A program made the position numbers and the translations under genes. Positions 36,671 through 62,981 of a DNA stretch of 64,000 bases are shown piece by piece; position 1 is the first letter of the stretch, and every line of letters begins with the position of its first letter. Location: positions 496,001 through 560,000 of the forward strand of contig OZ025781.1 in NCBI GenBank assembly GCA_964019425.1, given 5' to 3'. The DNA comes from Flectonema sp. DT1601. Its lineage: Eukaryota. The notes below the pieces were generated by a model. It did not search any database. It was not told the origin of the DNA and worked only from the letters and a program-made list of their open reading frames with translations.

Positions 36671-39600
36671 TAGTATTGGAAATCATTTTTTATTTCGTTG
36701 TTCAGAAATCACTTCTCTTGACCTTTCAGGTCTTTGTGGTGTCACCAGTATTGGAAGTTCTTTTTTGTCTAATTGTTCAGAAATCACTTCTGTTGACCTT
36801 TCAGGTCTTAGTAGTGTCACCAGTATTAAAAGTTCTTTTTTGTCTTATTGTTCAGAAATCACTTCTCTTGACCTTTCAGGTCTTAGTAGTGTCACCAGTA
36901 TTGGATATCAATTTTTGTCTAATTGTTCAGAAATCACTTCTGTTGCCTGTTTTTACAGGCTATGGGGCTGTATACGTATGGAAAAGGATGTAATGGAGTG
37001 GCAAGAGAAGTGGGCTCACGACGGGCAGTACGGCTACCGGAAGGGGAGATCTACGCTCGACCTCAGCTGGAAGATAGCACTAGACGTGGAACACGCAACT
37101 CTCTACGGAGAAGAGATTGCAGGAGTGACCACGGACTTCAGGAAGTGTTTCGACCTGATCCCGCACGACATCCTCCTGAAATTGGTGAAGGAATTGGGCC
37201 TCGGTGATAAGATCCTGAGAACTGTGACGGATGTCTACCGGCGACTCAGAAGGAGATTCAAGTTCCCGAGCGGCGTCGGAGAAGAATTTGCCACCACCAA
37301 CGGAATACTGCAAGGATGCCCGCTCAGCGTGGTGCTCTTCAATGCGCTGAGCTCGATACTCAGCAAAGCAATCGAGAGGGAAGCCGATGTGACGCCCGGA
37401 TCGTATGCGGACGACCTGACATTGTTTGGATCACGAACGAAGCTACAAGAAGGCGTAGAAGTCGTTGCGGAGTTCTGCACCCTGACCGGACAAGAACTCG
37501 CGCCTCAGAAATGCAAGTGGTTCTCGAACAGAGACCAGGGCCAGACCAACATCACAATGGGGGACACAACACTGGACTTCGATGACAGTGTCGATATCGT
37601 GGGATGCCACCTCAGTATGAAAGGAACCACCAAGCAGATGGGGAGGATCACGGAAGAAGTGCTCGATAGAGCGAGGCGAATCCGGTTACTTCCGCTCAGA
37701 TATCAAGCGAAGGAACAGATAGCTGCAGCTAGTGTCATGCCCAAGGCGCTCTTCGGAACGGCACTGTACGATCCCGATGCGACGCGACTCGGACTGCTGA
37801 GAAGAGCAATGGCAACGGGGATTTTCCGCAAACTTGGAGGGAAAAGAACTAAGATGTCGCACACCATGGGCCTAACGCTACTCTGCAAGGGACATTGTGT
37901 GGATCCCGCGACGTACATTAGGTACAACAGACTCCTTGCACTCACCAGAATGCTACCGAAGCTAACTGAGAGGATACGCAGGGTATGGGAACACCTGCAG
38001 GAGCACACTGAAGCGACGAGAGGACCAGTCGGCCTCGCCCTGAGTACTCTGAAGGAACTTGGATGGGAATGGTCAACTTTCTCGGTCTTCGAAGGTCCGG
38101 GAGGGATGACCGAACACGGAAGGCTGGATGCGGGGCGCTGGCGGCACGATGTCAGAGAGGCGTGCAGGCGTTTCACCTGGAACAAAACAATTGCGGAAAC
38201 GAGACGGGTAAACCTGAGAGGTATTGAAGCGGGCATCGACCGGAAAGAGACCCTGAAGGTCCTGAAGGAAGGAAAGGGCGACCCCTACCTGCGCGGAGTA
38301 GTGAAGCACTGCCTCCTGGACAACGTGTACACTGGCTCGATGAAGGCGGGAAACAAGAACTGCGCGCACTGCGAGGAGGTTGACGACGTAGAGAGGACGG
38401 AGACCCTCGAGCACGTGAACTGGGATTGCAGAGCTTATGACACAATACGACAGGAATATCCGCAAGTGATGCTACAAGTTCGATGCGATTGGCCCAATTG
38501 CCTGAGGCTACTCGGCATCAAGCCCGACAATGTGGAACTGCCGGCGGGGCTCACCGGAGACCTACAACGAATGTTCGCACGGATCAGGCTCCGCAGGGAC
38601 GACTACCAACAACTGGAGGAGAGACGGCTGACGGTTGTGGAATACGCTGGGAACAAGGAACCGGAAGTAGTTATGCGATACAACAACAAACTGGAAAAGT
38701 ACATGCCAGTATACACCCAATGGCCCGAAGCCCTTGGATTGACCTTGTACTTAGCGCTTGCGAGCTACCTGAGGGAACTGAAGTGGCCTCGACAGCCAGA
38801 CGGGGTCGGAGTCACCTTCCTGGAATTAGCGATCGACTTCGAAGCGTATGCGGGGGTTGACATACCGACCACAGTCCACGAAGGCCACGTAGCGAAGTGC
38901 ACCAAAGACAGAGCCGCCGGGAAGAAAGCTGACGTCATGTGTGGACTGATGCTAAGATTGAACTTGGTTCACAAGCATTTAGAAGGCGAGGAACAAAGAA
39001 CCTTTCCCGACTACTGCGTAGGAAGCAACAAAGCCTTACGTCCACTAGGAGCCCCGGTACTGAAAGGTTTGAAGAAACGACCAGCTTTTCTGATGGGAGA
39101 CGAAACAGTAGACACAATTCGGAGGACGGTCCAGGAGGCGAACGACGGAAAAGCTGACAAAATCAGATTCGGCTTCGAGACTGAGTGCAGGCACTCGAGC
39201 GAGAGGGAAGGGAGAGCGGAGAAATGGATAACCGCGGCACGACTTTTCCCATCAAAGGAAAAAGACGTACAGCTGAGGAGGGAGCTCTGCGAGCGAGGAC
39301 CGACACGCCCGCCACCCGAGGTCGTCAAGAGACCGGGCATCGCGGAGGGACAAGGAACGATGAACTCGACGTGCTACGGGCACTTCAAGAAGAAATGCAA
39401 TAGTTGTCGACGGGCCGGAAACACCATCTACCAGTGCTGCCACAACCATCACACTCTGGGGGATGAAGATGGACAAATACCGATATGGGACTTTTGCAGC
39501 AAGCACAAGCTTACTCCATGTGCAGTCTGCATAGTGATCGGCAGAGGATCTGAGCAATGTTGCAGAAACAGCCACCACCGATGCCGTCACCACGAGATGG

Positions 39601-39836
39601 CTCCCTGCAACGACTGCAAGCGGAATCCGGATCCGGAACAACGGACTGCCACGAAATGCTGCAACAAAAAGCATCACGGGCCAATTATAAGGACGTTGAC
39701 GAGGAGGGCGAAGCAGCCGACGAAGCATGATACGCAAACCAGCACATCGCTTCTAAAATTAGGTTTCACCAAACAAATGAAACCGAAAGCAGAGGAAACC
39801 CCGGAAAGGGAACCACAGGACAAGGGGTTAACTTAG
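36153..39836 (+). CDS. Chimeric ORF: ubiquitin-like domain + 25-aa LRRs fused in frame to 5'-deleted retrotransposon ORF2 (RT core + Zn-binding tail)
   Basis: Open 1227-codon frame. MQVFV..Ubl and 4 full LRRs are followed from ~36952 by YRLWG..QYGY..DFRKCFD..GILQGCPLS..YADD, identical to the full element. Confidence 0.8.
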   Translation: MQVFVTCPDLGFPAVSVTVGADSVVSDVLMEAAGEWDVDAEEVELLFAGDVLCESERLADHGVGGDSELEMRKKLIRIFGKNWFVDDRKREMLLLWIRDHNTEDLYLDTPTFLEDGCLTVDKRLLPSDAKRISFRHSNSNSTVISQVTSIGDDFLYDCSEITSLDLSSISSVTSIGNHFLFRCSEITSLDLSGLCGVTSIGSSFLSNCSEITSVDLSGLSSVTSIKSSFLSYCSEITSLDLSGLSSVTSIGYQFLSNCSEITSVACFYRLWGCIRMEKDVMEWQEKWAHDGQYGYRKGRSTLDLSWKIALDVEHATLYGEEIAGVTTDFRKCFDLIPHDILLKLVKELGLGDKILRTVTDVYRRLRRRFKFPSGVGEEFATTNGILQGCPLSVVLFNALSSILSKAIEREADVTPGSYADDLTLFGSRTKLQEGVEVVAEFCTLTGQELAPQKCKWFSNRDQGQTNITMGDTTLDFDDSVDIVGCHLSMKGTTKQMGRITEEVLDRARRIRLLPLRYQAKEQIAAASVMPKALFGTALYDPDATRLGLLRRAMATGIFRKLGGKRTKMSHTMGLTLLCKGHCVDPATYIRYNRLLALTRMLPKLTERIRRVWEHLQEHTEATRGPVGLALSTLKELGWEWSTFSVFEGPGGMTEHGRLDAGRWRHDVREACRRFTWNKTIAETRRVNLRGIEAGIDRKETLKVLKEGKGDPYLRGVVKHCLLDNVYTGSMKAGNKNCAHCEEVDDVERTETLEHVNWDCRAYDTIRQEYPQVMLQVRCDWPNCLRLLGIKPDNVELPAGLTGDLQRMFARIRLRRDDYQQLEERRLTVVEYAGNKEPEVVMRYNNKLEKYMPVYTQWPEALGLTLYLALASYLRELKWPRQPDGVGVTFLELAIDFEAYAGVDIPTTVHEGHVAKCTKDRAAGKKADVMCGLMLRLNLVHKHLEGEEQRTFPDYCVGSNKALRPLGAPVLKGLKKRPAFLMGDETVDTIRRTVQEANDGKADKIRFGFETECRHSSEREGRAEKWITAARLFPSKEKDVQLRRELCERGPTRPPPEVVKRPGIAEGQGTMNSTCYGHFKKKCNSCRRAGNTIYQCCHNHHTLGDEDGQIPIWDFCSKHKLTPCAVCIVIGRGSEQCCRNSHHRCRHHEMAPCNDCKRNPDPEQRTATKCCNKKHHGPIIRTLTRRAKQPTKHDTQTSTSLLKLGFTKQMKPKAEETPEREPQDKGLT

Positions 39837-39909
39837 GTTGGCCGAACCAGTGCCTCGTCATCTCACCGTGCTAGCAAGCCTGAATGACAGCACTCAAAAT
39901 GGTACATAT
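36952..39909 (+). mobile_element. Non-LTR retrotransposon copy A (5' 4.8 kb missing)
   Basis: Identical to 48620-51577. Lacks the ribozyme, ORF1 and the endonuclease. Confidence 0.92.
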
Positions 39910-40834: not shown

Positions 40835-43830
40835 ATGTAAAGTGTTGAATTGATTATTGGTTGTCATGTATTTTATATTTTTAATGTTTTGTTGTCAATA
40901 AAACGTGGTATCAACTTTTACCAAGTGACGAGACCTCGGAATCTATGATTCTCCTCGCGTCTCATCACTTCTCTTCCGATGATATTATTCTGCCAAGTTA
41001 TCTTTTTTTCCCTGAGCGTTTAGTATTACTGTTTGCGATTATACAAAAATCTACGTCTGTTTTCTGAGTAATCTTTTTTTTTGTTCCGACGAAGTCAGAG
41101 AAGAAACTATTCAGATTGAAAGTCGATATTTCTTATGGTCATGATTAATTTTCACCATGCGACAGGATTTTATCTGTGTTCAACGAAATATAAGGCTGAT
41201 CTGAATGGTTTTTTTGTTCTTATTTTGTGTCAAACCCCCGTCCTTGGATCTGACAGGTATTTTTCAGTTGAGTACTTTGATATTAATTTAATTTCAATAT
41301 CAAAATTCCATTTTTGGTAACGTGCCGCTAACAATGAATGAAGAGGGAGAAAAGCTTCTGTTTGGTTGGGTCAACCAACTGAACGTTTCTCCGCCGATAT
41401 CGGGACGGAAATTATTTACAAGATATTCGTAAAATGTATCAAGCGAAAGTTATTTTGTAGTGTTCATTCTTTTATCAGACTTTCAAGCCTTTCCCCGTTT
41501 TCAATAATAAATCTTAATCCCACCCGCCATTCCTCGTAGTGCCGATCCTCCCCAAGAGAAGATCGGCACATTAATGTTCATGAAGCAGATACTCTAAGGC
41601 AGACGTCTACTCGTCGTCAAGGGTAGACCGCCAAGTTGACGACCCTATATGTATATGATTACCGAGTGAATTGTTTTCTATCCTTCATCATCATCTTTCT
41701 TTCATCAGGTGCAAAAAGAATGCAATAGTTGATTACCGAGTACAACAAAGTTTTTATATTTATCACTCTAATTTACTAACTCAGTAGATGTAAATTCATG
41801 TAGCGTTGGTGCATCAAAGTAGTTGAGAATTTGAATCGAAACTGCCTCGAAGATTCTGTTTTTAAGTTGTCAAAGTTTCACCCCAACCTTCGGATTTAAT
41901 AAAAGAGCTGTTTTATTATTTTTAATATAAGCTAACTCATTTGTTTGAAAAAAATGATTTCCAATTAATGTCTTTGCTGAAAAAACCCGTCGATGCCACC
42001 ACCCCGACATTATTTGTTAGGATTATACAGAGCCCCCTCATGTTTTCTAACTGAATTCTGGATAACACTACCATAATTTATGTAAAGTGAGTACTCCGCT
42101 ATTAGTGTTGCTACGAACTAACAATATGGGTAGGCCATCAAATTCTGATGGATAGTTTAGGGGGGGGAGTAGGGGGGGGGTACAAGCATCGAATTTACGG
42201 AGATTTTGGGCACTTTCGGTTTTTTTCCGGAGAACAAGTTTTTTGGGCACCCAAACTATGAAAACTGCAACATATACCCCAAAAATGGGGATTGCGATCC
42301 AAAGAAACAGTTCTTCGGCACTTTAGAGCAAGTCTTTGAAAAATCTCAAAAAGTGTGGACCGTGTGGGTACCTGAGGGGGGTGAAAACAAGGGGTGTGTT
42401 AGGAGGGCTCACAAAAATTACAAGTAATTCCGTGCATTGAGCAATCCATAACCAGGGTTTCCCTCTGAGTTGAGTGGGGAATGAAATGGGAACCCAAGTT
42501 TTATTTTTATCGACCTGATTTGAACCTTAATAATATGCTCCACCAGACCGGGCTTGTTAATTCCCCCATGTCCGATGTTTAGGCTACTGGCCTTCTCTTG
42601 AGCATCCCATGTGCTCAGCTTTTGAAATTCGGCTCGAAGCTGTGCTTCTTTCTGTACAAGATAGACAGAGGACCAATCCTTGGATACAGATGGCAGATTA
42701 GTATTAGACCTTGCTGTCTAGAGGTCTTCCCTGTGAGGACGGGGTGGTACGTTCAGCCCCTGTAGCGCCTCCTGTTGTGCTTGTTCTTGCCAATTTGAAG
42801 AGGGTCGGTGGTCCTGCGTTGATGTGGTAGCCTTTGGAAGTCCGTGTACCTCTGGAATATGTTGTACGTTATCAGTAGAGTAGCATTCACGCCACTGGTT
42901 CCATCAGTTGACCAAGAACTATCAACAACACTGAATAACCTCCCCATCCCTTGAGGGGTGCAGGATGACAACGAACGCCACGGTTGTTAGCTTCATCCCA
43001 CGAACACGACGGTACCAGAGGAAGTATCATGCTGCAGCAATTTGACGGAGGGTGAGGAGGAAGCTGCTGCTTCAAGAAGTCAGGTCACCGACAGATCACC
43101 TGTGAATCCATCAAGTCGGACTGTCCTTCGAGATACAGTTGGTGACTTCGACCCGCTTCTCTTCTGTCTGCGCACCTGCGACAGCTTCAACTATGTCACT
43201 CACTCAGGACTTAGTTAGATCTCTCTGCGCCGATCCCTTCTTGCCGCAATATCTGCAGTGTAGTTACGACTCCAAGACTCTAGGAGTATGTCCCCCTCGT
43301 TTGGGTACAGTTGCAAGCGGATGTGTCTTCCGTACTTCTTCGTATGCCGCATGTACTGAAGTGTCTTGTATGCCCTGCTGGTGAGTATGGTTGGGTCTTG
43401 AGTGATGCCTTGAACGGCTTTTTGGACGGGGCATGTTGCCCTATGTCGCTGTTGCTATCTATGGCACTGCTATTTGATGCACTACCACTACAGCTGTCTT
43501 CAGGCTTATCCCTGTTTGGGGTACAGACGTGGCGCTTTGTCTATTCTGTGAGCCTTCTGTGATCACGATTCAGATACTGGACGTTTTTGGACCCCTTTCT
43601 CACGCGTATCTTGCTTCTGACTGTCCAAGTGCTGTTGAGTGACTTCAGGGATGCCTCGGGAGGTGTTTTCATGCACTCCGGGATCAATGCTCTCTTCCGC
43701 AGAATGACTTTGTGAGCTGCCCTGCAGAACGTCGTTTTCCGCTGCGTTATCCTGCCTCTTGACCTTTCAGGTCTTAGTAGTGTCACAAGTATTGGAAATC
43801 ATTTTTTTGTCTGAGTGTTCAGAAATCACT

Positions 43831-46767
43831 TGGGATCACGACACCTGCCTCCTCGCGGCGGTCCCGGACGACTTCGATAGGGGTCGACAAGACGGTGTCA
43901 AACGCAAGGGATGCGAACAACATCAACACCAACCACCACATCAAGAGCATCCGAACACTGGATGTTTCTTATCCAACAAAGAAAGAAACAGGCTGGCCCA
44001 TGCCTTGAATGGCAATGGTGGAACAAGGAAGGACAGCAGAGACCGACGCCCGCGGGACGACACTCGCGACAGGGACGAGGACCGCACGGACAAGGAAGAA
44101 CGCCGGCTGGCGAAACTCGAGAAGGAAAAACTCGAGTCGCTAGACGAAATCGAGGAAGAGAAGCAGCGGCTGGGGCAACAGAGAATGGCCATGGAGCAGC
44201 ACCACCACCAGAAGGAAACCAACCTTCAAGGACAAGAAAAACAGTTGGAACAGCAACGCCAACACCAACAACAAGAACTGCAAAGTCAGTACCACCAACA
44301 ACAGCAGCAACTGCAAAGCCACCATCAGCTGAAGGAAACGGAAAGTCTCCAGAAGGAGCAAAACCTACAGGCTCAACTCAAAGAGCAACATCAGCACCAA
44401 CAGAAGGAATTGGAGAAGCAATACCGCCAACGACAACAGCAACTGGAAAGCCAGCAGCAGAAGAAGGACGCCGAGTCTGAACAGCAAACGCATCTGACTC
44501 GGTCACAACTACAGAAGGAAAAGGAATCCTTCCAGACGGAGAAGGAACGGCTCCACCTCCAGCTGGATCAGCAGCTAAAGAACGAGAAGGAGCACCTCCA
44601 CCGAAAGCTCAAGGAGCAGATTGGACAAGAAAAAGTCCAACAACAACAAAAGCTCCAACAGAAGGAAGACGAGATCCAACGGCGTGAGGAAGAGGTGAAC
44701 CGAGGACAGCAGCAACTACACCAACAGCAGCAACAACTAGAGCAACAGCAACAGCAATCGCAACATCAGCAACTGGAACTACAACAACAACGGCAACAAC
44801 AACAACAACAGCATCAACAACTGGAACTGGAACAACAACAACTACAACAGCAACTGCAACTGCAACAACATCGACAACCGCAACAACAACCGCAACAGCA
44901 ACCCGTACACTACATGCAACATCAACCGTATGCAACGTACGACACCTACGCCCAGCAGCAGCAGCAGTCTTCCCACTACGAAGGACTACAACAGGAACTG
45001 AAGCGCGAGAGAGAGGAGAAAAGCGAACTACGCGAGATGCTCCGAACTCTCCAACAACAACTGGACGGATTGAGAGAAGAACTCAAGGCCCAACATGCTG
45101 AGGCGAAGAGGCAGCAGGAAACGGCGGGACGGGAAGCGAGAGAGATGCAAGAACGTTTCTTGCTAGAACTCGAAGCGGAACGGGTCCAGATCAGAGGACT
45201 CAACTCGCTGAGAGAAGAGGAAGAGGAACATCAGATGGACACCACCCCTGATCAGGAAGCAAACACGGAAGTGAAGCAAACGCCACCGGTGAAGCTGCCC
45301 CAAGACGGTATGAGGGAGCTGGACGCCTCACGCAAGAAGCTGATGAAAGAAATCAATGAAGGGCAGGTAGCCGGACGATCGGCCATCCAAGAGCAGATGG
45401 TCCGAGAGGCCGGGAGACTGGCGCAGACTCAGAAGAGCTGGGAGAACGCAGCACGCAAGGAGCGATCCAGGGTGGATAACCTCTCGCTGGCACCGGAGTA
45501 TTGGCCAGAGGGAATGGCAATTACGAAGGAGCAGTACGACGCCGGTACAAAGGGAGTACACCTCACCACCAGAGAGGAGGCAAGGAAGAGGATGTCGGGA
45601 ACACCTCCGGGAGCCTGGGAAACGTTATCCCTAGTAACCCTGGAACCACCATCAGACACGGCGCAGAAAGTACAGGTAGTACTTAAGGAGACGACGAGCG
45701 ACGGCGAGAAGAGAATTCTCAAGCAGCTCTGGATGACAACACTGGGAAGAGTGGTTGTACCATCCGGAACAGACGTCGTGCGGACGGAAAGCACGAGGGA
45801 GATGGTTGTCCGAGTGGACAAAAAATGGTCCGGAGAGAAGAGATGGTCGGAAGTGAAGCGCTCCCCGATCAGGGCAACGGAAGAGTTGAGGAAGATGCAG
45901 GGGTATGTCGATACGTACAACCCGCGGATCGGAGACCAGAGCGTCACGGTGATGCTCAGGGTGAAGGTAGCCGAAGTGAAGAACTTCCTCCGAGAATCGG
46001 GGAAGGACGGCGTCTTCACCAAGGAAAAGGATCCGAGAGAAGAACGAGCAGTGAAGGCGGCGGTCATTTGGCTACCGAAGGACGAGACACTCGGAATCGC
46101 TCGGGACAAGGCTGTAGAAGTCGATGGAGGGCTGGGACTTGTGGTAAACGAACACGGACTCGGGCTTCGAGTGACCAGCTGGCAGGAAACGGCGGCGAGG
46201 GAGAAACTGCACCTGCCGGCTAAGCTACCGGAAACAAAGATCACGGGTATCCCGATCGGCACAACCACCGACGAAGCGATCAAGTGGCTGATCACGAAGG
46301 AAGGCTGGGAAGTGAGGAAGACGAAGGAAGGCGTACGGAACGGCATGCGATGGATGGTCGTCCGCGGTCCGGTGAGAACGCAGGAAACCATCACGGTGGA
46401 TGGCGTCCTGTGCATGGTGGAGGCTGGGAAACAGAAGGTGGAAGTCGACCCGAAACGGAAGGAGACCAAACGCCCGAATGCGACACCGACAAAACCGGAG
46501 AAAAGGCGTGACCCGACGGAGGGAACGGGAGGAAAGTGGTACACTCGATTGGAGTTCATCGAGTTTCATGGGAAGAAGAAGGGACAACGCCTATGGTTAG
46601 AAGCCAGCAACCCAACACCAACTACGACGGCACCTACGAAGGCAGCGACCGCAACGACAACAGCGAAAAAGGAGCCCAAGTCGACAAAAAAGAAGGAGAA
46701 CAGCTCAGTGGACGAGAGATTGGACCGACTGGAACGTCTACTGATGGCGTTCATGGAACGGAATTGA
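43831..46767 (+). CDS. Retrotransposon ORF1 (Gln-rich coiled coil, RRM-like C-terminal region); true start unclear
   Basis: Frame is open from the insertion junction to TGA at 46765-46767. First in-frame ATG is at 44185. The frame is preserved across indels in copy C. Confidence 0.85.
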   Translation, partial: WDHDTCLLAAVPDDFDRGRQDGVKRKGCEQHQHQPPHQEHPNTGCFLSNKERNRLAHALNGNGGTRKDSRDRRPRDDTRDRDEDRTDKEERRLAKLEKEKLESLDEIEEEKQRLGQQRMAMEQHHHQKETNLQGQEKQLEQQRQHQQQELQSQYHQQQQQLQSHHQLKETESLQKEQNLQAQLKEQHQHQQKELEKQYRQRQQQLESQQQKKDAESEQQTHLTRSQLQKEKESFQTEKERLHLQLDQQLKNEKEHLHRKLKEQIGQEKVQQQQKLQQKEDEIQRREEEVNRGQQQLHQQQQQLEQQQQQSQHQQLELQQQRQQQQQQHQQLELEQQQLQQQLQLQQHRQPQQQPQQQPVHYMQHQPYATYDTYAQQQQQSSHYEGLQQELKREREEKSELREMLRTLQQQLDGLREELKAQHAEAKRQQETAGREAREMQERFLLELEAERVQIRGLNSLREEEEEHQMDTTPDQEANTEVKQTPPVKLPQDGMRELDASRKKLMKEINEGQVAGRSAIQEQMVREAGRLAQTQKSWENAARKERSRVDNLSLAPEYWPEGMAITKEQYDAGTKGVHLTTREEARKRMSGTPPGAWETLSLVTLEPPSDTAQKVQVVLKETTSDGEKRILKQLWMTTLGRVVVPSGTDVVRTESTREMVVRVDKKWSGEKRWSEVKRSPIRATEELRKMQGYVDTYNPRIGDQSVTVMLRVKVAEVKNFLRESGKDGVFTKEKDPREERAVKAAVIWLPKDETLGIARDKAVEVDGGLGLVVNEHGLGLRVTSWQETAAREKLHLPAKLPETKITGIPIGTTTDEAIKWLITKEGWEVRKTKEGVRNGMRWMVVRGPVRTQETITVDGVLCMVEAGKQKVEVDPKRKETKRPNATPTKPEKRRDPTEGTGGKWYTRLEFIEFHGKKKGQRLWLEASNPTPTTTAPTKAATATTTAKKEPKSTKKKENSSVDERLDRLERLLMAFMERN
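43832..43899 (+). ncRNA. Predicted HDV-like self-cleaving ribozyme at the element 5' end (copy B)
   Basis: P1 GGGAUC/GGUCCC; P2 GACACC/GGUGUC; P3-L3 GCC-UCCUCGC-GGC; P1.1 GG; P4 CGACUUC-GAUA-GGGGUCG; J4/2 ACAA with candidate catalytic C43888. Folded by eye. Confidence 0.88.
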
Positions 46768-49700
46768 CCGGCGGAGGACGGAAGGAACTGGGCGGAGACA
46801 CGGAGACGTCTCCTGCTACAAGCTGGCGACGTTGAGAGGAACCCCGGACCGAGACCACGAATCGATGGGCTCACCGTGGGAACAATCAATGTCACCACAC
46901 TAGAAGGAAAAATAGATGCCATCACAGATCTGAACCTAGATCTGATAGCTCTACAGGAAACTTCTCTGACGGGCCCACAGCAACGCCAGATGAAAAAACA
47001 GCTCGGTGAGAGAGGATGGGAAGCGACGTTCGGGTTAGAGTGCAAATTACTAACCGATGGGCAAAAGACGTGGACGGCGGCGGGAGGCGTGGCCATCTTG
47101 ACGCGCACTGGTACACCGGTGAGAAGGATAAAACACGATCGGCTCGACAACACAGGACGATTCGTACACGCGGGAGTGTCGTACGGAAATGGCAAGGTAC
47201 TGCACGTATTCTCGTTCTACGGAGACGTACGTTCGGCGGTCTACACGGAAGAGTTGATTGCGGAGATGCTCGTGGAAGCAGCAGCTCTGGGTGATGTTCC
47301 CGTATTTATAGCGGGGGACTTCAACGTCGAAACAACGGAATCGCCGGCGCTTCTGTCGGCTTTCGCACACGGACTCTGGATAGATGCCGCCGTCTCGATG
47401 GGAAACATGACACCGACAAGCGAAGCGGGAAAAGGACTTCGTAGAATCGATGCTATTCTGATGAACCGCGGGGCGGCGACAGCAATCTCGAATGACACAA
47501 CGATTCATGTGCATAAGAGTGAGCTGATCCCGACACACAAGCCGGTCATCATTAGAAAGCTCAGCATCTCACGCTACAACGAGAAGGCTCCTAGGCTGAT
47601 AGTACCGAAACAGTTGGATACCTCCGAGACAACGGACCCGAGTGAGGGGAAGGCCGAAAGGCAACTCCACTGGACGCGAGCTGTAGCGACGGAAGATCCT
47701 GACAAGATGCTGGAGGCGCTTGGAGAGATCATCGAAAGATACCTTCTGACGGGAAAGCTGGAGATAAGTAACCCAGCCAAGTACAAGGGACGCGGGAAGA
47801 AGCGTGAGCCTGTGATGTGGACGAACGCGGCGAAACAAGACGGGAGAGGAGCGACGTGCAGGGAAACGCGGAGAAGACTGCAGAAGATACGTGTTCTGGA
47901 GGAAGTGATGAAAATCACAAAGCAACGCGATGGTCCGACGGTGCCGTCCCACGAAGTAATGAAACTCTGGAAAAAATTACGAAAACTCGATCCGACGACG
48001 GGATCCGAAATACCACAGACGGAGGAGCTTCGGATACTACTACAACAAGCGAGACAGGAGCAAGCGATAGAAAGCAAGAAGCTCCGAACTGAACGCATCC
48101 GCATGTGGAAACGGAATGTTGTCGACAATTGGAATGACGACCGCACGAAGGTTTTCCAGTGGATCAGGAACGTCGAGCAATCGAAGACTGTTCTGATGGA
48201 AAAGGCAGATGGAAGCTGGACGGCCAACTGCTCCGAGATGGATGAGGCCATGCACGCGGCATGGGACCCCATACTCAAAAAGTACTTATCAGACCCGGAA
48301 CCAGACTGGATGAAGTTCGAAGAACGGTACAGCAACTACATCGAGGAACACCCGATGCGATGCGAAGATATCACCGGGGAGGACGTTGCAAAAGCCCTCA
48401 GAAGGACTAGCTCGCGCAAAGCAGCTGGGGTAGACGGCTTCAGGATATCGGAGCTCAAGTCGCTACCGGAGGACATGATTCAGATGATAGCGGAATTCTA
48501 CAACATAGTGGAGAGAACACACTGGCCGGAAGCACTTCTCACGGCACTGGTGTCGGCCATACCCAAAGGGGCAGGGACGAAACCACTGGAGCAGAGACCC
48601 ATTACGGTGACATCCGCACTTTACAGGCTATGGGGCTGTATACGTATGGAAAAGGATGTAATGGAGTGGCAAGAGAAGTGGGCTCACGACGGGCAGTACG
48701 GCTACCGGAAGGGGAGATCTACGCTCGACCTCAGCTGGAAGATAGCACTAGACGTGGAACACGCAACTCTCTACGGAGAAGAGATTGCAGGAGTGACCAC
48801 GGACTTCAGGAAGTGTTTCGACCTGATCCCGCACGACATCCTCCTGAAATTGGTGAAGGAATTGGGCCTCGGTGATAAGATCCTGAGAACTGTGACGGAT
48901 GTCTACCGGCGACTCAGAAGGAGATTCAAGTTCCCGAGCGGCGTCGGAGAAGAATTTGCCACCACCAACGGAATACTGCAAGGATGCCCGCTCAGCGTGG
49001 TGCTCTTCAATGCGCTGAGCTCGATACTCAGCAAAGCAATCGAGAGGGAAGCCGATGTGACGCCCGGATCGTATGCGGACGACCTGACATTGTTTGGATC
49101 ACGAACGAAGCTACAAGAAGGCGTAGAAGTCGTTGCGGAGTTCTGCACCCTGACCGGACAAGAACTCGCGCCTCAGAAATGCAAGTGGTTCTCGAACAGA
49201 GACCAGGGCCAGACCAACATCACAATGGGGGACACAACACTGGACTTCGATGACAGTGTCGATATCGTGGGATGCCACCTCAGTATGAAAGGAACCACCA
49301 AGCAGATGGGGAGGATCACGGAAGAAGTGCTCGATAGAGCGAGGCGAATCCGGTTACTTCCGCTCAGATATCAAGCGAAGGAACAGATAGCTGCAGCTAG
49401 TGTCATGCCCAAGGCGCTCTTCGGAACGGCACTGTACGATCCCGATGCGACGCGACTCGGACTGCTGAGAAGAGCAATGGCAACGGGGATTTTCCGCAAA
49501 CTTGGAGGGAAAAGAACTAAGATGTCGCACACCATGGGCCTAACGCTACTCTGCAAGGGACATTGTGTGGATCCCGCGACGTACATTAGGTACAACAGAC
49601 TCCTTGCACTCACCAGAATGCTACCGAAGCTAACTGAGAGGATACGCAGGGTATGGGAACACCTGCAGGAGCACACTGAAGCGACGAGAGGACCAGTCGG

Positions 49701-51504
49701 CCTCGCCCTGAGTACTCTGAAGGAACTTGGATGGGAATGGTCAACTTTCTCGGTCTTCGAAGGTCCGGGAGGGATGACCGAACACGGAAGGCTGGATGCG
49801 GGGCGCTGGCGGCACGATGTCAGAGAGGCGTGCAGGCGTTTCACCTGGAACAAAACAATTGCGGAAACGAGACGGGTAAACCTGAGAGGTATTGAAGCGG
49901 GCATCGACCGGAAAGAGACCCTGAAGGTCCTGAAGGAAGGAAAGGGCGACCCCTACCTGCGCGGAGTAGTGAAGCACTGCCTCCTGGACAACGTGTACAC
50001 TGGCTCGATGAAGGCGGGAAACAAGAACTGCGCGCACTGCGAGGAGGTTGACGACGTAGAGAGGACGGAGACCCTCGAGCACGTGAACTGGGATTGCAGA
50101 GCTTATGACACAATACGACAGGAATATCCGCAAGTGATGCTACAAGTTCGATGCGATTGGCCCAATTGCCTGAGGCTACTCGGCATCAAGCCCGACAATG
50201 TGGAACTGCCGGCGGGGCTCACCGGAGACCTACAACGAATGTTCGCACGGATCAGGCTCCGCAGGGACGACTACCAACAACTGGAGGAGAGACGGCTGAC
50301 GGTTGTGGAATACGCTGGGAACAAGGAACCGGAAGTAGTTATGCGATACAACAACAAACTGGAAAAGTACATGCCAGTATACACCCAATGGCCCGAAGCC
50401 CTTGGATTGACCTTGTACTTAGCGCTTGCGAGCTACCTGAGGGAACTGAAGTGGCCTCGACAGCCAGACGGGGTCGGAGTCACCTTCCTGGAATTAGCGA
50501 TCGACTTCGAAGCGTATGCGGGGGTTGACATACCGACCACAGTCCACGAAGGCCACGTAGCGAAGTGCACCAAAGACAGAGCCGCCGGGAAGAAAGCTGA
50601 CGTCATGTGTGGACTGATGCTAAGATTGAACTTGGTTCACAAGCATTTAGAAGGCGAGGAACAAAGAACCTTTCCCGACTACTGCGTAGGAAGCAACAAA
50701 GCCTTACGTCCACTAGGAGCCCCGGTACTGAAAGGTTTGAAGAAACGACCAGCTTTTCTGATGGGAGACGAAACAGTAGACACAATTCGGAGGACGGTCC
50801 AGGAGGCGAACGACGGAAAAGCTGACAAAATCAGATTCGGCTTCGAGACTGAGTGCAGGCACTCGAGCGAGAGGGAAGGGAGAGCGGAGAAATGGATAAC
50901 CGCGGCACGACTTTTCCCATCAAAGGAAAAAGACGTACAGCTGAGGAGGGAGCTCTGCGAGCGAGGACCGACACGCCCGCCACCCGAGGTCGTCAAGAGA
51001 CCGGGCATCGCGGAGGGACAAGGAACGATGAACTCGACGTGCTACGGGCACTTCAAGAAGAAATGCAATAGTTGTCGACGGGCCGGAAACACCATCTACC
51101 AGTGCTGCCACAACCATCACACTCTGGGGGATGAAGATGGACAAATACCGATATGGGACTTTTGCAGCAAGCACAAGCTTACTCCATGTGCAGTCTGCAT
51201 AGTGATCGGCAGAGGATCTGAGCAATGTTGCAGAAACAGCCACCACCGATGCCGTCACCACGAGATGGCTCCCTGCAACGACTGCAAGCGGAATCCGGAT
51301 CCGGAACAACGGACTGCCACGAAATGCTGCAACAAAAAGCATCACGGGCCAATTATAAGGACGTTGACGAGGAGGGCGAAGCAGCCGACGAAGCATGATA
51401 CGCAAACCAGCACATCGCTTCTAAAATTAGGTTTCACCAAACAAATGAAACCGAAAGCAGAGGAAACCCCGGAAAGGGAACCACAGGACAAGGGGTTAAC
51501 TTAG
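46768..51504 (+). CDS. Retrotransposon ORF2: 2A peptide + APE endonuclease + reverse transcriptase + CCHC knuckle + triple Cys/His repeat
   Basis: APE motifs GTINV, IALQET, GGVAIL, GDFNV and RIDAIL; RT motifs RPITV, DFRKCFD, GILQGCPLS and YADD; C-x2-C...H-x4-C. Same frame as ORF1, no ATG before the APE domain, no RNase H recognised. Confidence 0.93.
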   Translation, partial: PAEDGRNWAETRRRLLLQAGDVERNPGPRPRIDGLTVGTINVTTLEGKIDAITDLNLDLIALQETSLTGPQQRQMKKQLGERGWEATFGLECKLLTDGQKTWTAAGGVAILTRTGTPVRRIKHDRLDNTGRFVHAGVSYGNGKVLHVFSFYGDVRSAVYTEELIAEMLVEAAALGDVPVFIAGDFNVETTESPALLSAFAHGLWIDAAVSMGNMTPTSEAGKGLRRIDAILMNRGAATAISNDTTIHVHKSELIPTHKPVIIRKLSISRYNEKAPRLIVPKQLDTSETTDPSEGKAERQLHWTRAVATEDPDKMLEALGEIIERYLLTGKLEISNPAKYKGRGKKREPVMWTNAAKQDGRGATCRETRRRLQKIRVLEEVMKITKQRDGPTVPSHEVMKLWKKLRKLDPTTGSEIPQTEELRILLQQARQEQAIESKKLRTERIRMWKRNVVDNWNDDRTKVFQWIRNVEQSKTVLMEKADGSWTANCSEMDEAMHAAWDPILKKYLSDPEPDWMKFEERYSNYIEEHPMRCEDITGEDVAKALRRTSSRKAAGVDGFRISELKSLPEDMIQMIAEFYNIVERTHWPEALLTALVSAIPKGAGTKPLEQRPITVTSALYRLWGCIRMEKDVMEWQEKWAHDGQYGYRKGRSTLDLSWKIALDVEHATLYGEEIAGVTTDFRKCFDLIPHDILLKLVKELGLGDKILRTVTDVYRRLRRRFKFPSGVGEEFATTNGILQGCPLSVVLFNALSSILSKAIEREADVTPGSYADDLTLFGSRTKLQEGVEVVAEFCTLTGQELAPQKCKWFSNRDQGQTNITMGDTTLDFDDSVDIVGCHLSMKGTTKQMGRITEEVLDRARRIRLLPLRYQAKEQIAAASVMPKALFGTALYDPDATRLGLLRRAMATGIFRKLGGKRTKMSHTMGLTLLCKGHCVDPATYIRYNRLLALTRMLPKLTERIRRVWEHLQEHTEATRGPVGLALSTLKELGWEWSTFSVFEGPGGMTEHGRLDAGRWRHDVREACRRFTWNKTIAETRRVNLRGIEAGIDRKETLKVLKEGKGDPYLRGVVKHCLLDNVYTGSMKAGNKNCAHCEEVDDVERTETLEHVNWDCRAYDTIRQEYPQVMLQVRCDWPNCLRLLGIKPDNVELPAGLTGDLQRMFARIRLRRDDYQQLEERRLTVVEYAGNKEPEVVMRYNNKLEKYMPVYTQWPEALGLTLYLALASYLRELKWPRQPDGVGVTFLELAIDFEAYAGVDIPTTVHEGHVAKCTKDRAAGKKADVMCGLMLRLNLVHKHLEGEEQRTFPDYCVGSNKALRPLGAPVLKGLKKRPAFLMGDETVDTIRRTVQEANDGKADKIRFGFETECRHSSEREGRAEKWITAARLFPSKEKDVQLRRELCERGPTRPPPEVVKRPGIAEGQGTMNSTCYGHFKKKCNSCRRAGNTIYQCCHNHHTLGDEDGQIPIWDFCSKHKLTPCAVCIVIGRGSEQCCRNSHHRCRHHEMAPCNDCKRNPDPEQRTATKCCNKKHHGPIIRTLTRRAKQPTKHDTQTSTSLLKLGFTKQMKPKAEETPEREPQDKGLT
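46789..46851 (+). other. 2A (StopGo) ribosome-skipping peptide WAETRRRLLLQAGDVERNPG|P (copy B)
   Basis: Exact D[VI]ExNPGP consensus at 46828-46851, preceded by LLxQAG, immediately before APE motif I. Confidence 0.92.
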
Positions 51505-54500
51505 GTTGGCCGAACCAGTGCCTCGTCATCTCACCGTGCTAGCAAGCCTGAATGACAGCACTCAAAATGGTACATATAATTGTTCACAAATCACTTCTCT
51601 TGACCTTTCAGGTCTTAGTAGTGTCACCAGTATTGAAAGTTTTTTTTTGTCTAATTGTTCACAAATCACTTCTCTTGACCTTTCAGGTATTAGTAGTGTC
51701 ACCAGTATTGGAGTTTGTTTTTTGTCTAAGTGTTCAGAAATCACTTCTCTTGACCTTTCAGGTCTTAGTAGTGTCACCATTATTGAAAGTTCTTTTTTGT
51801 CTTATTGTTCTGAAATCACTTCTCTTGACCTTTCAGGTCTTAGTAGTGTCACTAGTATTGGAAATCATTTTTTATTTCGTTTTTCAGAAATCACTTCTCT
51901 TGACCTTTCAGGTCTTTGTGGTGTCACCAGTATTGGAAGTTCTTTTTTGTCTAATTGTTCACAAATCACTTCTCTTGACCTTTCAGGTCTTAGTAGTGTC
52001 ACCAGTATTGAAAGTTTTTTTTTGTCTAAGTGTTCACAAATCACTTCTCTTGACCTTTCAGGTCTTAGTAGTGTCACCAGTATTGAAAGTTTTTTTTTGT
52101 CTAAGTGTTCACAAATCACTTCTCTTGACCTTTCAGGTCTTAGTAGTGTCACCAGTATTGAAAGTTTTTTTTTGTCTAAGTGTTCACAAATCACTTCTCT
52201 TGACCTTTCAGGTCTTAGTAGTGTCACCAGTATTGGAGATTGTTTTTTGTCTGAGTGTTCAGAAATCACTTCTCTTGACCTTAGTAGTGTCAACTCTTGG
52301 TCTTAGTAGTGTCACCAGTATTGAAAGTTCTTTTTTGTCTAATTGTTCAAAAATCACTTCTGTTGACCTTTCAGGTCTTAGTGATGTTAAAGAAATTGGT
52401 GATGCCTTCTTCGATAATTGCAGTGCCCTGGAATCTGTTCAGCTGCCTGAAAATAATGGCGCTCTCTTTGAACCGTCTGTGAAAGCTGCGATTAATCATT
52501 AAATGTAAAGTGTTGAATTGATTATTGGTTGTCATGTATTTTATATTTTTAATGTTTTGTTGTCAATAAAACGTGGTATCAACTTTTACCAAGTGACGAG
52601 ACCTCGGAATCTATGATTCTCCTCGCGTCTCATCACTTCTCTTCCGATGATATTATTCTGCCAAGTTATCTTTTTTTCCCTGAGCGTTTAGTATTACTGT
52701 TTGCGATTATACAAAAATCTACGTCTGTTTTCTGAGTAATCTTTTTTTTTGTTCCGACGAAGTCAGAGAAGAAACTATTCAGATTGAAAGTCGATATTTC
52801 TTATGGTCATGATTAATTTTCACCATGCGACAGGATTTTATCTGTGTTCAACGAAATATAAGGCTGATCTGAATGGTTTTTTTGTTCTTATTTTGTGTCA
52901 AACCCCCGTCCTTGGATCTGACAGGTATTTTTCAGTTGAGTACTTTGATATTAATTTAATTTCAATATCAAAATTCCATTTTTGGTAACGTGCCGCTAAC
53001 AATGAATGAAGAGGGAGAAAAGCTTCTGTTTGGTTGGGTCAACCAACTGAACGTTTCTCCGCCGATATCGGGACGGAAATTATTTACAAGATATTCGTAA
53101 AATGTATCAAGCGAAAGTTATTTTGTAGTGTTCATTCTTTTATCAGACTTTCAAGCCTTTCCCCGTTTTCAATAATAAATCTTAATCCCACCCGCCATTC
53201 CTCGTAGTGCCGATCCTCCCCAAGAGAAGATCGGCACATTAATGTTCATGAAGCAGATACTCTAAGGCAGACGTCTACTCGTCGTCAAGGGTAGACCGCC
53301 AAGTTGACGACCCTATATGTATATGATTACCGAGTGAATTGTTTTCTATCCTTCATCATCATCTTTCTTTCATCAGGTGCAAAAAGAATGCAATAGTTGA
53401 TTACCGAGTACAACAAAGTTTTTATATTTATCACTCTAATTTACTAACTCAGTAGATGTAAATTCATGTAGCGTTGGTGCATCAAAGTAGTTGAGAATTT
53501 GAATCGAAACTGCCTCGAAGATTCTGTTTTTAAGTTGTCAAAGTTTCACCCCAACCTTCGGATTTAATAAAAGAGCTGTTTTATTATTTTTAATATAAGC
53601 TAACTCATTTGTTTGAAAAAAATGATTTCCAATTAATGTCTTTGCTGAAAAAACCCGTCGATGCCACCACCCCGACATTATTTGTTAGGATTATACAGAG
53701 CCCCCTCATGTTTTCTAACTGAATTCTGGATAACACTACCATAATTTATGTAAAGTGAGTACTCCGCTATTAGTGTTGCTACGAACTAACAATATGGGTA
53801 GGCCATCAAATTCTGATGGATAGTTTAGGGGGGGGAGTAGGGGGGGGGTACAAGCATCGAATTTACGGAGATTTTGGGCACTTTCGGTTTTTTTCCGGAG
53901 AACAAGTTTTTTGGGCACCCAAACTATGAAAACTGCAACATATACCCCAAAAATGGGGATTGCGATCCAAAGAAACAGTTCTTCGGCACTTTAGAGCAAG
54001 TCTTTGAAAAATCTCAAAAAGTGTGGACCGTGTGGGTACCTGAGGGGGGTGAAAACAAGGGGTGTGTTAGGAGGGCTCACAAAAATTACAAGTAATTCCG
54101 TGCATTGAGCAATCCATAACCAGGGTTTCCCTCTGAGTTGAGTGGGGAATGAAATGGGAACCCAAGTTTTATTTTTATCGACCTGATTTGAACCTTAATA
54201 ATATGCTCCACCAGACCGGGCTTGTTAATTCCCCCATGTCCGATGTTTAGGCTACTGGCCTTCTCTTGAGCATCCCATGTGCTCAGCTTTTGAAATTCGG
54301 CTCGAAGCTGTGCTTCTTTCTGTACAAGATAGACAGAGGACCAATCCTTGGATACAGATGGCAGATTAGTATTAGACCTTGCTGTCTAGAGGTCTTCCCT
54401 GTGAGGACGGGGTGGTACGTTCAGCCCCTGTAGCGCCTCCTGTTGTGCTTGTTCTTGCCAATTTGAAGAGGGTCGGTGGTCCTGCGTTGATGTGGTAGCC

Positions 54501-58500: not shown

Positions 58501-59389
58501 ACGAACTAGCAATATGGGTAGGCCATCAAATTCTGATGGATAGATTAGGGGGGGGGGGTGTGTCCTGTCGGTTCCGTATGTGAAATCTATTACAATTAAT
58601 GAAGACTTGGTTGTGGATTTAATTATTAATTTATTAGAGGATTCAGACATTCTAGTTTTTAGAGAAGAGCAAGACGGGTCATGTTATTTTATAGGAAATT
58701 ACAACTACAGAATATGTTGCACTATTCAGGAATCGAAGCTGCTTTTTCAGTTTTTCCTTATTACTTTACGATTGTTGCCGTCGTTTTGGAACGCTTCATC
58801 AATATTAATAAACCTTTTCGTCTTTCAGTAGATTCCAAAAAAAAAGGAAACAAATAAAAACAACAACAGCAATGCAAGTTTTTGTGACGTGTCCGGATTT
58901 GGGATTCCCTGCGGTGTCAGTCACGGTTGGTGCTGATTCTGTTGTGAGCGACGTGTTGACGGAAGCGGCTGGCGAGTGGGATGTCGATGCGGAGGAAGTT
59001 GTACTGTTGTTCGCTGGTGATGTCCTTTGTGAAAGTGAGCGGCTGGCAGATCATGGAGTGGGTGGAGACAGCGAGTTGGAAATGCGGAAGAAGCTGATTC
59101 GGATCTTCGGTAAAAACTGGTTTGTTGATGATAGAAAAAGGGAGATGCTGCTTCTTTGGATTAGAGACCACAATACGGAGGATTTATATCTGGACACTCC
59201 CACATTCTTGGAGGATGGTTGCCTCACTGTTGACAAAAGATTGCTTCCTTCAGATGCCAAACGGATTTCCTTCCGCCATTCAAACTCCAACAGCACGGTC
59301 ATCTCACAAGTTACTTCTATTGGAGATGACTTTTTATATGATTGTTCAGAAATCACTTCTCTTGATCTTTCAAGTATTAGTAGTGTCAC
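55560..59389. repeat. Segmental duplication, copy 2 (pairs with 32841-36670)
   Basis: Offset 22719, near-complete identity. Confidence 0.95.
56065..57081 (+). CDS. Papain-family (C1A) cysteine protease, copy 2
   Basis: Protein identical to 33346-34362. Confidence 0.95.
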   Translation: MKLSLALLSLPCLAAGLTASAEDVAHLAFDSFKSQYNKKYVSEVEEAKRYEAFKASLDRVAASGNPTHGITKFSDMTPEEFKATYLSARPLQKSSPPVAEWDGECTACKRFPELSNLKNATSFDWTTKGAVTKVKNQGQCGSCWSFGTTGDIEGTWFLAGNDLTSLSEQELVSCDKTDDGCGGGLQETAFAWVIKQGGLTTEANYPYNSGGGRVDACEEAKKKPIAASIKTWYQVSKNAGGESKIESQLPHVGPITIGINATPMQDYKGGVDNPRLCSGLQLDHAVLIVGFGTDNGVDYWKIKNSWAADWGEEGYYRIVRGHNKCGLANDAVHSVAGK

Positions 59390-62300: not shown

Positions 62301-62981
62301 ACGCTCGGAATCGCTCGGGACAAGGCTGTAGAAGTCGATGGAGGGCTGGGACTCGTGGTAAACGAACACGGACTCGGGCTTCGAGTGACCAGCTGGCAGG
62401 AAACGGCGGCGAGGGAGAAACTGCACCTGCCGGCTAAGCTACCGGAAACAAAGATCACGGGGATACCGATCGGCACAACCACCGACGAAGCGATCAAGTG
62501 GCTGATCACGAAGGAAGGCTGGGAAGTGAGGAAGACGAAGGAAGGCGTACGGAACGGCATGCGATGGATGGTCGTCCGCGGTCCGGTGAGAACGCAGGAA
62601 ACCATCACAGTGGATGGCGTCCTGTGCATGGTGGAGGCTGGGAAACAGAAGGAGGAAGTCGACCCGAAACGGAAGGAGACCAAACGCCCGAATGCGACAC
62701 CGACGAAACCAGAGAAAAGGCGTGACCCGACGGAGGGAACGGGAGGAAAGTGGTACACTCGATTGGAGTTCATCGAGTTTCATGGGAAGAAGAAGGGACA
62801 ACGCCTATGGTTAGAAGCCAGCAACCCAACACCAACTACGACGGCACCTACGAAGGCAGCGACCGCAACGACAACAGCGAAAAAGGAGCCCAAGTCGACA
62901 AAAAAGAAGGAGAACAGCTCAGTGGACGAGAGATTGGACCGACTGGAACGTCTACTGATGGCGTTCATGGAACGGAATTGA
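58872..62981 (+). CDS. Chimeric ORF: Ubl + 8 LRRs (58872-59958) fused in frame to retrotransposon ORF1 (59959-62981)
   Basis: Open 1369-codon frame with junction ...FLSYCSEIT|WDHDTCLL... Confidence 0.85.
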   Translation: MQVFVTCPDLGFPAVSVTVGADSVVSDVLTEAAGEWDVDAEEVVLLFAGDVLCESERLADHGVGGDSELEMRKKLIRIFGKNWFVDDRKREMLLLWIRDHNTEDLYLDTPTFLEDGCLTVDKRLLPSDAKRISFRHSNSNSTVISQVTSIGDDFLYDCSEITSLDLSSISSVTSIGVCFLSECSEITSLDLSGLSSVTSIGNHFLFRCSEITSLDLSGLSSVTSIKSSFLSYCSEITSLDLSGLSSVTSIGYQFLSNCSEITSVDLSGLSSVTSIGNDFLFRCSEITSLDLSGLSSVTSIKSSFLSYCSEITSLDLSGLSSVTSIGYQFLSNCSEITSVDLSGLSSVTSIGDCFLSYCSEITWDHDTCLLAAVPDDFDRGRQNSVKHKRCQQHQNHQNQLQHPEHTNPGLSNKERNKLAHALNGNGGPGKDSRDRRPRDDTRDRDENRPNKEERRIAKLEKEKLDSLDEIEEEKQRLGQQRMAMEQHHHQKETNLQGQEKQLEQQRQHQQQELQSQYHQQQQQLQSHHQLKETESFQKEQNLQAQLKERHQHQQKELEKQYRQQQQQLESQQQKKDAESEQQTHLTRLQLQKEKESFQTEKERLHLQLDQQLKNEKEHLHQQLQQKEDEVRKEKLAERIELQQLRDELTQQEQNIQRREEEVNRGQHQLHQQQQQLEQQQQQSQHQQLELQQQRQQQQQQQQHQQLELQQQQQQQHQQQHQQLELEQQQLQQQQQLQQHRQPQQQPQQQPVHYMQHQPYATYDTYAQQQQSSHYEGLQQELKREREEKSELREMLRTLQQQLDGLREELKAQHAEAKRQQETAGREAREMQERFLLELEAERVQIRGLNSLREEEEELQMDTTPDQEANTEVKQTPPVKLPQDGMRELDASRKKLMKEINEGQVAGRSAIQEQMVREAGRLAQTQKSWENAARKERSRVDNLSLAPEYWPEGMAITKEQYDAGAKGVHLTTREEARKRMSGTPPGAWETLSLVTLEPPSSTAQKVQVVLKETTSDGEKRILKQLWMTTLGRVVVPSGTDVVRTESTREMVVRVDKKWSGEKRWSEVKRSPFRATEELKKMPGYVDTYNPRIGDQSVTVMLRVKVAEVKNFLRESGKDGVFTKEKDPREERAVKAAVIWLPKDETLGIARDKAVEVDGGLGLVVNEHGLGLRVTSWQETAAREKLHLPAKLPETKITGIPIGTTTDEAIKWLITKEGWEVRKTKEGVRNGMRWMVVRGPVRTQETITVDGVLCMVEAGKQKEEVDPKRKETKRPNATPTKPEKRRDPTEGTGGKWYTRLEFIEFHGKKKGQRLWLEASNPTPTTTAPTKAATATTTAKKEPKSTKKKENSSVDERLDRLERLLMAFMERN
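59959..60026 (+). ncRNA. Predicted HDV-like ribozyme (copy C)
   Basis: Core identical to copy B. Two changes lie near the 3' strand of P2 (GACAC/GUGUC retained). Confidence 0.82.

Follow-up and report, generated by a model that had tools for sequence, protein, structure and literature searches.

A predicted HDV-like ribozyme at the start of an in-frame LINE within a coding leucine-rich repeat of Flectonema

The stretch of DNA analysed here, called the window, comprises 64,000 nucleotides of Flectonema sp. DT1601 (assembly GCA_964019425.1, contig OZ025781.1, positions 496,001 to 560,000 of the forward strand) and is typified by long intronless open reading frames (ORFs). From ~32.8 kb onward it is built of tandem units, each consisting of a papain-family gene and a ubiquitin-like (Ubl) gene with BspA-type leucine-rich repeats (LRRs) of 75 nt. 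The LRR repeats are interrupted three times by one APE-type retrotransposon without long terminal repeats (non-LTR), that is, a long interspersed nuclear element (LINE) with an APE endonuclease and a reverse transcriptase (RT). The element copies, their parts and the host LRR segments next to them lie on the + strand. Copy B (43832 to ~51576) is full-length, copy C (59959 to the window end) shows the 5' part with its 3' end beyond the window, and copy A (36952..39908) is a 3' half without ribozyme, fused in frame to a Ubl-LRR gene that starts at 36153. In copies B and C the element opens with a fold like that of the hepatitis delta virus (HDV) ribozyme, predicted to cut the RNA exactly where host sequence ends, and the same nucleotides appear to be translated as the beginning of ORF1.

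ORF1 of copy B (43831..46767) has 979 codons, is Q-rich, contains its first AUG at 44185 and ends in UGA followed by C; it has no Pfam match, and the ESM Atlas gave no usable match for its C-terminal part. ORF1 of copy C (59958..62981) lies in the frame of the host Ubl-LRR gene, whose coding sequence (58872..59958) is open from its own ATG into the element, and copy C is the only one in which an intact host ORF is fused to ORF1. Copy B is preceded by a single LRR repeat (43756..43831), a rearranged flank in which a run of 7 T (6 in the repeat consensus) shifts the LRR frame. ORF2 of copy B (46768..51504) encodes an APE endonuclease (PF03372, E 1.9e-6), an RT (PF00078, E 2.1e-23) and C-terminal Cys/His-rich repeats, and has no RNase H match in Pfam; its top match in the Protein Data Bank is LINE-1 ORF2p (E 5e-17). 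Among named relatives, the RT is closest to sequences of Flectonema neradi (73% and 71% identity) and next to one of Diplonema papillatum (45%), which makes a diplonemid host likely; no relative of the element was found in the viral sequence collection. Copy B closes with a short 3' untranslated region (51505..51576) without a poly(A) tail, and the host LRR repeat resumes at ~51577.

The predicted ribozyme occupies the first 68 nt of the element, 43832..43899 in copy B and 59959..60026 in copy C, and the segments P1, P2, P3, P1.1 and P4 occur in the order of a nested double pseudoknot in both. In copy B, P1 is formed by 43832-37/43860-65 (6 bp), P2 by 43840-45/43894-99 (6 bp), P3 by 43847-49/43857-59, P1.1 by 43851-52/43866-67 and P4 by 43869-75/43880-86 (7 bp, two of them U.G). 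L3 spans 43850-56 (UCCUCGC), and the candidate catalytic residue, C43888, is followed by A-A-G/A-A in J4/2. Copy C, with its candidate catalytic residue at C60015, differs from B at 2 of the 68 nt, a G>A in J4/2 and a G>A in P2 that leaves 5 bp. A sequence-only reading of this DNA had named these elements and likened L3 to that of HDV. Both statements hold: the fold is present in both copies, and UCCUCGC with G43866-67 as its partners fits the L3 and P1.1 pattern of an HDV-like descriptor (PMC6326823). The same reading had remarked on the short P1 and on the weaker P2 of copy C, which are as described and ordinary, because R2 ribozymes typically have a P1 of 6 or 7 bp and a P2 of at least 5 bp (PMC3774820).

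Searches with descriptors and covariance models, which had been suggested as a check on the fold, succeeded in part. A strict HDV-like descriptor, written after the sequence had been inspected, matches copy B and misses copy C on P2; neither the window, block-shuffled 150 times, nor element B, shuffled 1000 times, gave it any match (~35 Mb). A C-to-A control version of it likewise matched copy B, so that this control does not discriminate. The 13-mer of P3/L3 occurs twice against 0.02 expected. Over the whole window Rfam gave 9 matches; HDV is not among them, and each either lies in an A/T-rich stretch or scores far below threshold. Over 43800-43930 (131 nt; 4227 families) the sole match was RF00094, HDV_ribozyme (16.5 bits, E 1.8), below the gathering score of that family, with G43832 aligned to the first paired position of the model. 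Minimum free energy (MFE) z-scores were not significant (0.42 and 0.61; single-strand folding), as is expected for a pseudoknot. Across 56 related metagenome loci (RT matches at 23-52% identity) a loose descriptor gave 7 matches, none convincing, versus 10.6 per shuffled pass; most of these contigs lack the 5' end, so that absence is not implied.

The position of the fold relative to the host sequence is sharply defined. The window holds 37 AAATCACTT sites, of which 35 continue as host LRR repeat (CTCTTG/CTGTTG) and two continue with GGGATC, at 43832 and 59959. G1 (G43832, G59959) is therefore the first non-host base, and the earlier claim that the first G of P1 has this property in both copies is confirmed. 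In favour of a cut before G43832, genomic HDV does best with a U at nucleotide -1 (PMC1874588). Six junctions in one register join host LRR to ORF1: those of copies B and C, of the related proteins P0106, P0111 and P0144, and of a Flectonema gene from F. neradi (P0142 and P0164, isoforms of one assembled gene, counted once). The junction residues read xIT|W in B, C, P0106 and P0111, xIT|R in P0144 and SLV|W in Flectonema; since the junction codon of P0144 encodes Arg, retention of G1G2 would require A or C at its nucleotide -1. The host flanks diverge only a few codons away from these junctions (SEI, ERI, SRI, SQI). Sister subfamilies have K, L or Q ahead of GPHKM; each of these residues allows G1, and the sequence upstream varies. 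Together, the flank variation, the variable base -1 and the sister residues place the element's 5' end at G1. At the 3' junction of copy B, a 20-nt stretch matches the 5' flanks at 17-19 of 20 positions, which resembles an imperfect target-site duplication; the 5' flank of B itself is rearranged.

Constraint on the ribozyme is seen at the nucleotide level. Compared in the ORF1 frame, copies B and C show no synonymous difference over 15.3 sites of the ribozyme, against a synonymous difference per site (pS) of 0.476 in the next 93 codons (P ~5e-5), and the two differences that exist are both non-synonymous. From 43832 to 43890 the copies are identical at 59 of 59 nt, and the linker behind is 71% identical. 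Relatives were read as proteins only and back-translated to the allowed bases, and their pairings are accordingly inferred through codons. In the F. neradi transcript protein P0142, 9 of 23 residues are changed, no modelled pair is forcibly broken, and a compensatory swap from A10-U67 to U10-A67 is forced (null 0.05). The sister protein P0175, which uses another frame of the same RNA, forces four P1, two P3, both P1.1 and 5 of 7 P2 pairs with different letters and breaks none; its null of 2e-4 leaves shared ancestry out of account, and its P2 is read in a register one base over, with a 4-nt J4/2. Sister P2 pairs in the register of the window were dropped, as the register one base over fits better with the upstream residues. 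The catalytic C is forced in all four sister N-termini inspected and compatible in Flectonema. The nucleotide constraint, the codon-forced pairing and the common 5' boundary of six junctions support the fold, and on these comparisons it is very likely real and maintained.

The sequence-only reading had further proposed that the 68 nt, being stop-free in the ORF1 frame, may be coding as well. A stop-free run of 69 nt through the ribozyme is itself at chance level (P = 0.54), and the proposal draws its support elsewhere, from selection ahead of the first AUG, from a frame kept in two species and from a sister AUG within the ribozyme. Over the 93 aligned codons between the ribozyme and the first AUG (44185), copies B and C differ with a non-synonymous rate (pN) of 0.080 versus a pS of 0.476 (p 6e-11); this purifying selection implies that translation starts further up. 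The indels in the B/C linker sum to net +3. The linker of the Flectonema record cannot be aligned to that of the window, yet it is open and in frame (the chance of being stop-free is ~0.26 for the window linkers), and as a Trinity assembly is the source of the record, RNA that joins LRR and element is present in Flectonema. The counts that follow refer to 48 ORF1-family proteins among the matches listed, with eight members of one cluster outside. In 5 the ribozyme peptide stands behind an LRR or Ubl-LRR N-terminus; 13 have their start at an AUG within the ribozyme (nt 14-16), and the first internal AUG is the start of none. In copy B nt 14-16 are a CUG (43845..43847), at the position of the sister ORF1 AUG, and that frame is closed by a TAG (43878-43880). 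Before the NGN motif described below, the ORF1 frame contains no strong near-cognate start common to B and C, only AGG and AAG. No polypyrimidine-AG splice acceptor was found in 43852-44190; trans-splicing to the internal AUG is disfavoured for lack of one, and it would leave the selection upstream of the AUG unexplained. Ribozyme-headed LINEs are already known (R2, L1Tc), and the new part is the coding overlap of ribozyme and ORF1.

Two kinds of candidate release signal lie in the ORF1/ORF2 frame. The first is an NGN motif, NRLAHALNGN in copy B (43987..44016) and NKLAHALNGN in copy C (60117..60146), a predicted protein-level release site that ends 62-63 codons past the junction and that the sequence-only reading had missed; 20 of the 48 proteins carry such a motif. 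It is close to a totivirus-like processing signal: in infectious myonecrosis virus (IMNV) and Omono River virus (OmRV) NKxMHxxNGN immediately precedes the N-terminus of the capsid, and cryo-EM maps of OmRV show new N-termini after both motifs, one of them NHVMHALNGN (PMC7968656). Copy C has all positions of that consensus but M, where it has A, and copy B also has R for K. The likeness to the viral motif (PMC7968656) extends to the pattern N-x-x-x-H-A-L-N-G-N, to 7 of 10 residues of OmRV CM-2 and to a place at a protein boundary; unlike the viral case, A stands for M, G follows the site, the motif lies in a retrotransposon, and processing is only a prediction. One metagenome contig carries the motif five times on the RT strand, as RNxxxHxxxGN at ORF starts of LINE-like elements (L018 at 4670 and 10040; L020 at 832, 8511 and 14681), three of them just before an APE-like start, with 0.1 expected in total; in this position relatives carry GDVExNPGP or GEAxNPGP/GEAxHPGP peptides of the 2A type.

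The second kind lies between ORF1 and ORF2, which share one frame interrupted by a single UGA, then C, and followed by a 2A-like peptide (46765-46851 and 62979-63065). UGA followed by C is a leaky stop context. In copy B the 2A-like (StopGo) peptide spans 46789..46851, in the ORF1 frame behind the UGA, and ends in GDVERNPGP; this core is present in both copies, Flectonema P0003 has a matching peptide, and no AUG precedes the start of the APE domain. The 2A core alone is not sufficient for peptide-bond skipping (PMC3708506).

Family knowledge of L1Tc (PMC3185411) and R2 (PMC3774820) underlies the predicted activity, and by that analogy we are confident that the ribozyme would self-cleave 5' of G43832 in a Mg2+-dependent manner, a minor share of this confidence belonging to a cut in the T43831 register. 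That the predicted cleavage, the use of the cut RNA as template and translation through the ribozyme in the ORF1 frame occur jointly seems probable to us. The host gene would be transcribed through the element, and a share of the transcripts would be cut before G1; the cut 5'-OH RNA would serve as template for target-primed reverse transcription, so that full-length copies would start at G1. On the uncut share, ribosomes would start at the host AUG and pass by way of the LRRs and the ribozyme into ORF1, and for such initiation on uncut RNA our preference is slight. The NGN motif would release the ORF1 protein from the host LRR part; judged from the likeness to the viral motif, protein separation after ...NGN is rather to be expected. 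Read-through of UGA-C and then 2A StopGo would yield a little ORF2 protein, a route for which, from sequence, we see the prospects as evenly balanced. In the AUG subfamilies the NGN motif would merely trim a leader encoded by the ribozyme, a hint at how loss of the AUG could have been tolerated in the LRR lineage. The complete proposal, tentative and to us possible rather than probable, is a lineage without its own start codon that targets a coding repeat in frame, with cut host RNA as template, uncut RNA as capped message, and the NGN motif, UGA read-through and 2A freeing the proteins.

Several observations weigh against this proposal or against parts of it. At the level of the fold, the 16.5 bits of the RF00094 match are weak against a gathering score of 50; J4/2 exceeds the descriptor's C-R-R-A by 1-2 nt (PMC6326823); G1 pairs with C, U15.C62 is a mismatch, and the sister P0152 forces two broken P2 pairs. 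The host U(-1) could pair with G35 in competition with P1.1, a kind of competition that weakens L1Tc and R2 ribozymes (PMC3185411). Copies B and C diverge unevenly over the length of ORF1 (pS 0.48, 0.13, 0.06), so recombination between subfamilies could partly mimic the conservation of the 5' end. At the junctions, four of the six come from a protein search, which detects in-frame fusions only. In R2, variable junctions accompany cleavage at the element's own 5' end, and uniform junctions accompany cleavage upstream of it (PMC3774820); the six junctions here are uniform, unlike those of an R2 cut at its own 5' end. At the level of translation, copy B has no host AUG, the NGN motif has A for the viral M and G next, and subfamily P0139 lacks the motif. 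Whether the LRR-fused lineages group as one clade is doubtful, with a support of 50 in one tree and an open fork in another.

The rival that survives best, possible though we do not favour it, follows the mode of R2 and L1Tc: cutting would be efficient, the cut RNA would be both template and message, translation would begin without AUG at a ribozyme acting like an internal ribosome entry site (IRES), and the in-frame fusion would be a by-product of the fixed target register. HDV-like ribozymes have been proposed as IRESes in R2 and L1Tc (PMC6765202). The sister subfamilies start within the ribozyme, so ribosomes load there in this family, and purifying selection before the AUG fits such a start equally well. 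In the window, however, the ancestral-looking AUG frame is closed (CUG, TAG), ORF1 stands in the host frame in two species, the ORF1 frame offers no good near-cognate start, and the chimera of LRR, ribozyme and ORF1 appears in transcriptome-derived proteins (P0142/P0164). A host frame that is also open through the ribozyme would arise by chance about 1 in 6 times (1/3 x 0.54), and its bearing against the IRES-like start is therefore modest.

An improbable alternative to cleavage altogether is that the fold is a relic or weakly active: the element would be copied from uncut RNA whose upstream LRR anneals to the target, and the 68 nt would persist because they act structurally, as a promoter or in protein binding. 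Uniform junctions are the R2 pattern for RNAs with upstream host sequence, some well-folded trypanosomatid ribozymes are inactive in vitro (PMC4035085), and a chimeric transcript exists in Flectonema. Against these stand the flanks, which vary near the junction, together with nucleotide -1 in P0144; they suggest that little or no host sequence travels along. The catalytic C, L3 and P1.1 are moreover kept across subfamilies in two reading frames.

Just as improbable is a cut one base upstream, at host U43831. In both copies this alternative register gives a 7-bp P1 with host U43831.G43866 and a 1-bp P1.1; it is sterically possible in both, its energy equals that of the G43832 register within 0.2 kcal/mol, and ribozymes with a 1-bp P1.1 exist, as in L1Tc (PMC3185411). 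It gives up one G-C pair of P1.1, however, base -1 is variable in P0144 and in the sister subfamilies, and the Rfam alignment has G43832 first paired. That the likeness to HDV arose by chance, as the sub-threshold Rfam score, the unremarkable MFE and the descriptor tuned after the fact might suggest, is hardly credible and largely refuted by the empty ~35 Mb of shuffles, the exact position at the element boundary, the nucleotide constraint and the forced compensatory pairs.

The ribozyme would work in the manner of those of L1Tc and R2, with which the element can be compared. L1TcRz/Pr77 of L1Tc/ingi likewise belongs to a euglenozoan APE-RT LINE with a 2A before APE (PMC3185411, PMC4035085); compact and HDV-like, it occupies the first 68-77 nt, cuts at +1 and releases the RNA from co-transcripts, the cut here being predicted. 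L1Tc differs in its single ORF, which includes RNase H, in its poly(A) tail and in its near-random insertion; in the present element ORF2 is accompanied by an ORF1 of 979 codons, no match to RNase H is seen, poly(A) is absent, a single register in a coding repeat is used, and the ribozyme lies within the translated frame. The ingi architecture is a single ORF of APE-RT-RNase H (PMC12278014, PMC3708506), and by architecture the element is not a member of the Ingi clade. R2 also inserts site-specifically in a tandem host repeat and has an HDV-like ribozyme at the junction, with P1 and P2 of the lengths given above (PMC3774820). It uses a restriction-like endonuclease and a non-coding 28S rRNA target in which a host AUG is unusable, in contrast to the APE and the in-frame protein-coding repeat of the present case. 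Other APE-type LINEs with a 2A carry GDVExNPGP right before the APE of ORF2 (PMC3708506, PMC3894237); most of them lack an ORF1, with three exceptions named, whereas here an in-frame ORF1 is present with a single UGA-C between. The use of a multicopy repeat as target is common to non-LTR retrotransposons that are sequence-specific, and the list of known targets, in the part of the source available, contains no coding repeats (PMC5035012).

Among the literature matches listed, no account joining HDV-like ribozymes with Diplonema was found, though an earlier description may exist, and no title concerns an in-frame LINE that targets LRRs. Diplonemids occur in PMC12278014 in a reference only, and the main text of the D. 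papillatum genome paper does not contain the word 'ribozyme', though its supplements may bear on the point. No tie of the NGN motif to retrotransposons was found in the available parts of the literature, PMC7968656 and PMC9961563 included. The case would bring diplonemids into the known range of HDV-like ribozymes and a protein-coding repeat into the kinds of target used by site-specific LINEs, and it would provide a minimal system for examining the NGN motif as a stand-alone separation signal. How uncapped, ribozyme-cut LINE RNAs are translated is an open question, to which an IRES-like ribozyme is the usual answer; this family offers a natural comparison, testable with short constructs, of the same ribozyme with an internal AUG and without an AUG but in the host frame. 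If the start-codon-less lineage is real, the NGN motif would be a second, overlooked 2A-like class common to RNA viruses and LINEs.

Regarding the copies themselves, A and B have a common 6805-bp stretch with 99.985% identity and therefore represent one insertion rather than two independent ones. The window contains two near-identical segmental duplicates, 36952-43756 / 48620-55424 (99.985%) and 32838-36948 / 55557-59668 (99.4%), which are either very recent tandem duplications or an assembly artefact. In copy A an open frame of 1247 codons (36153-39836) runs from the Ubl-LRR gene into that half of ORF2 which contains the RT, a few filler bases lying between the two. In one sequencing run (X1) a contig spans the 5' junction, with the 3' end outside its coverage; its letters are of the copy C type, and it was therefore not counted as an independent insertion. 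A 23-nt tail at 51085 in the same run presumably stems from a library adaptor, to judge by its look. An origin of this run from complementary DNA was rejected, as the tail site is not A-rich (7 A in 20 nt, which 44% of element positions equal), and the run is accordingly no evidence of expression.

Relatives of the element vary at both ends. The sister proteins P0138, P0154 and P0170 begin with M-V/K-H-S-K-K-K, which corresponds to the 3' end of the element (51563-51576), ATGGTACAT, plus poly(A); sister elements thus seem to carry poly(A) tails and to be arranged head to tail, the LRR lineage being without a tail. In P0152 the ribozyme-coded 5' end is partly duplicated (GPHKMPPRGG twice), possibly by a template jump during insertion. 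Extra N-terminal domains precede APE in some relatives: P0027 and P0063 have OTU (PF02338), P0067 has ubiquitin (PF00240), and P0002 and P0003 have an unannotated domain that we take to be possibly peptidase-like; P0020 likewise belongs to the relatives with extra domains. The C-terminus of ORF2 (~51000-51400) contains repeated Cys/His units, CxxHxxxxCxxC ... CCxxxHH, which are also found in diplonemid relatives and are a possible zinc-binding array for target recognition. Outside the tandem units, a 1807-codon ORF at 6841-12264 combines a CAP domain with 297-nt and 105-nt Cys-rich or Pro/Thr-rich repeats, and its product is likely a secreted or surface protein.

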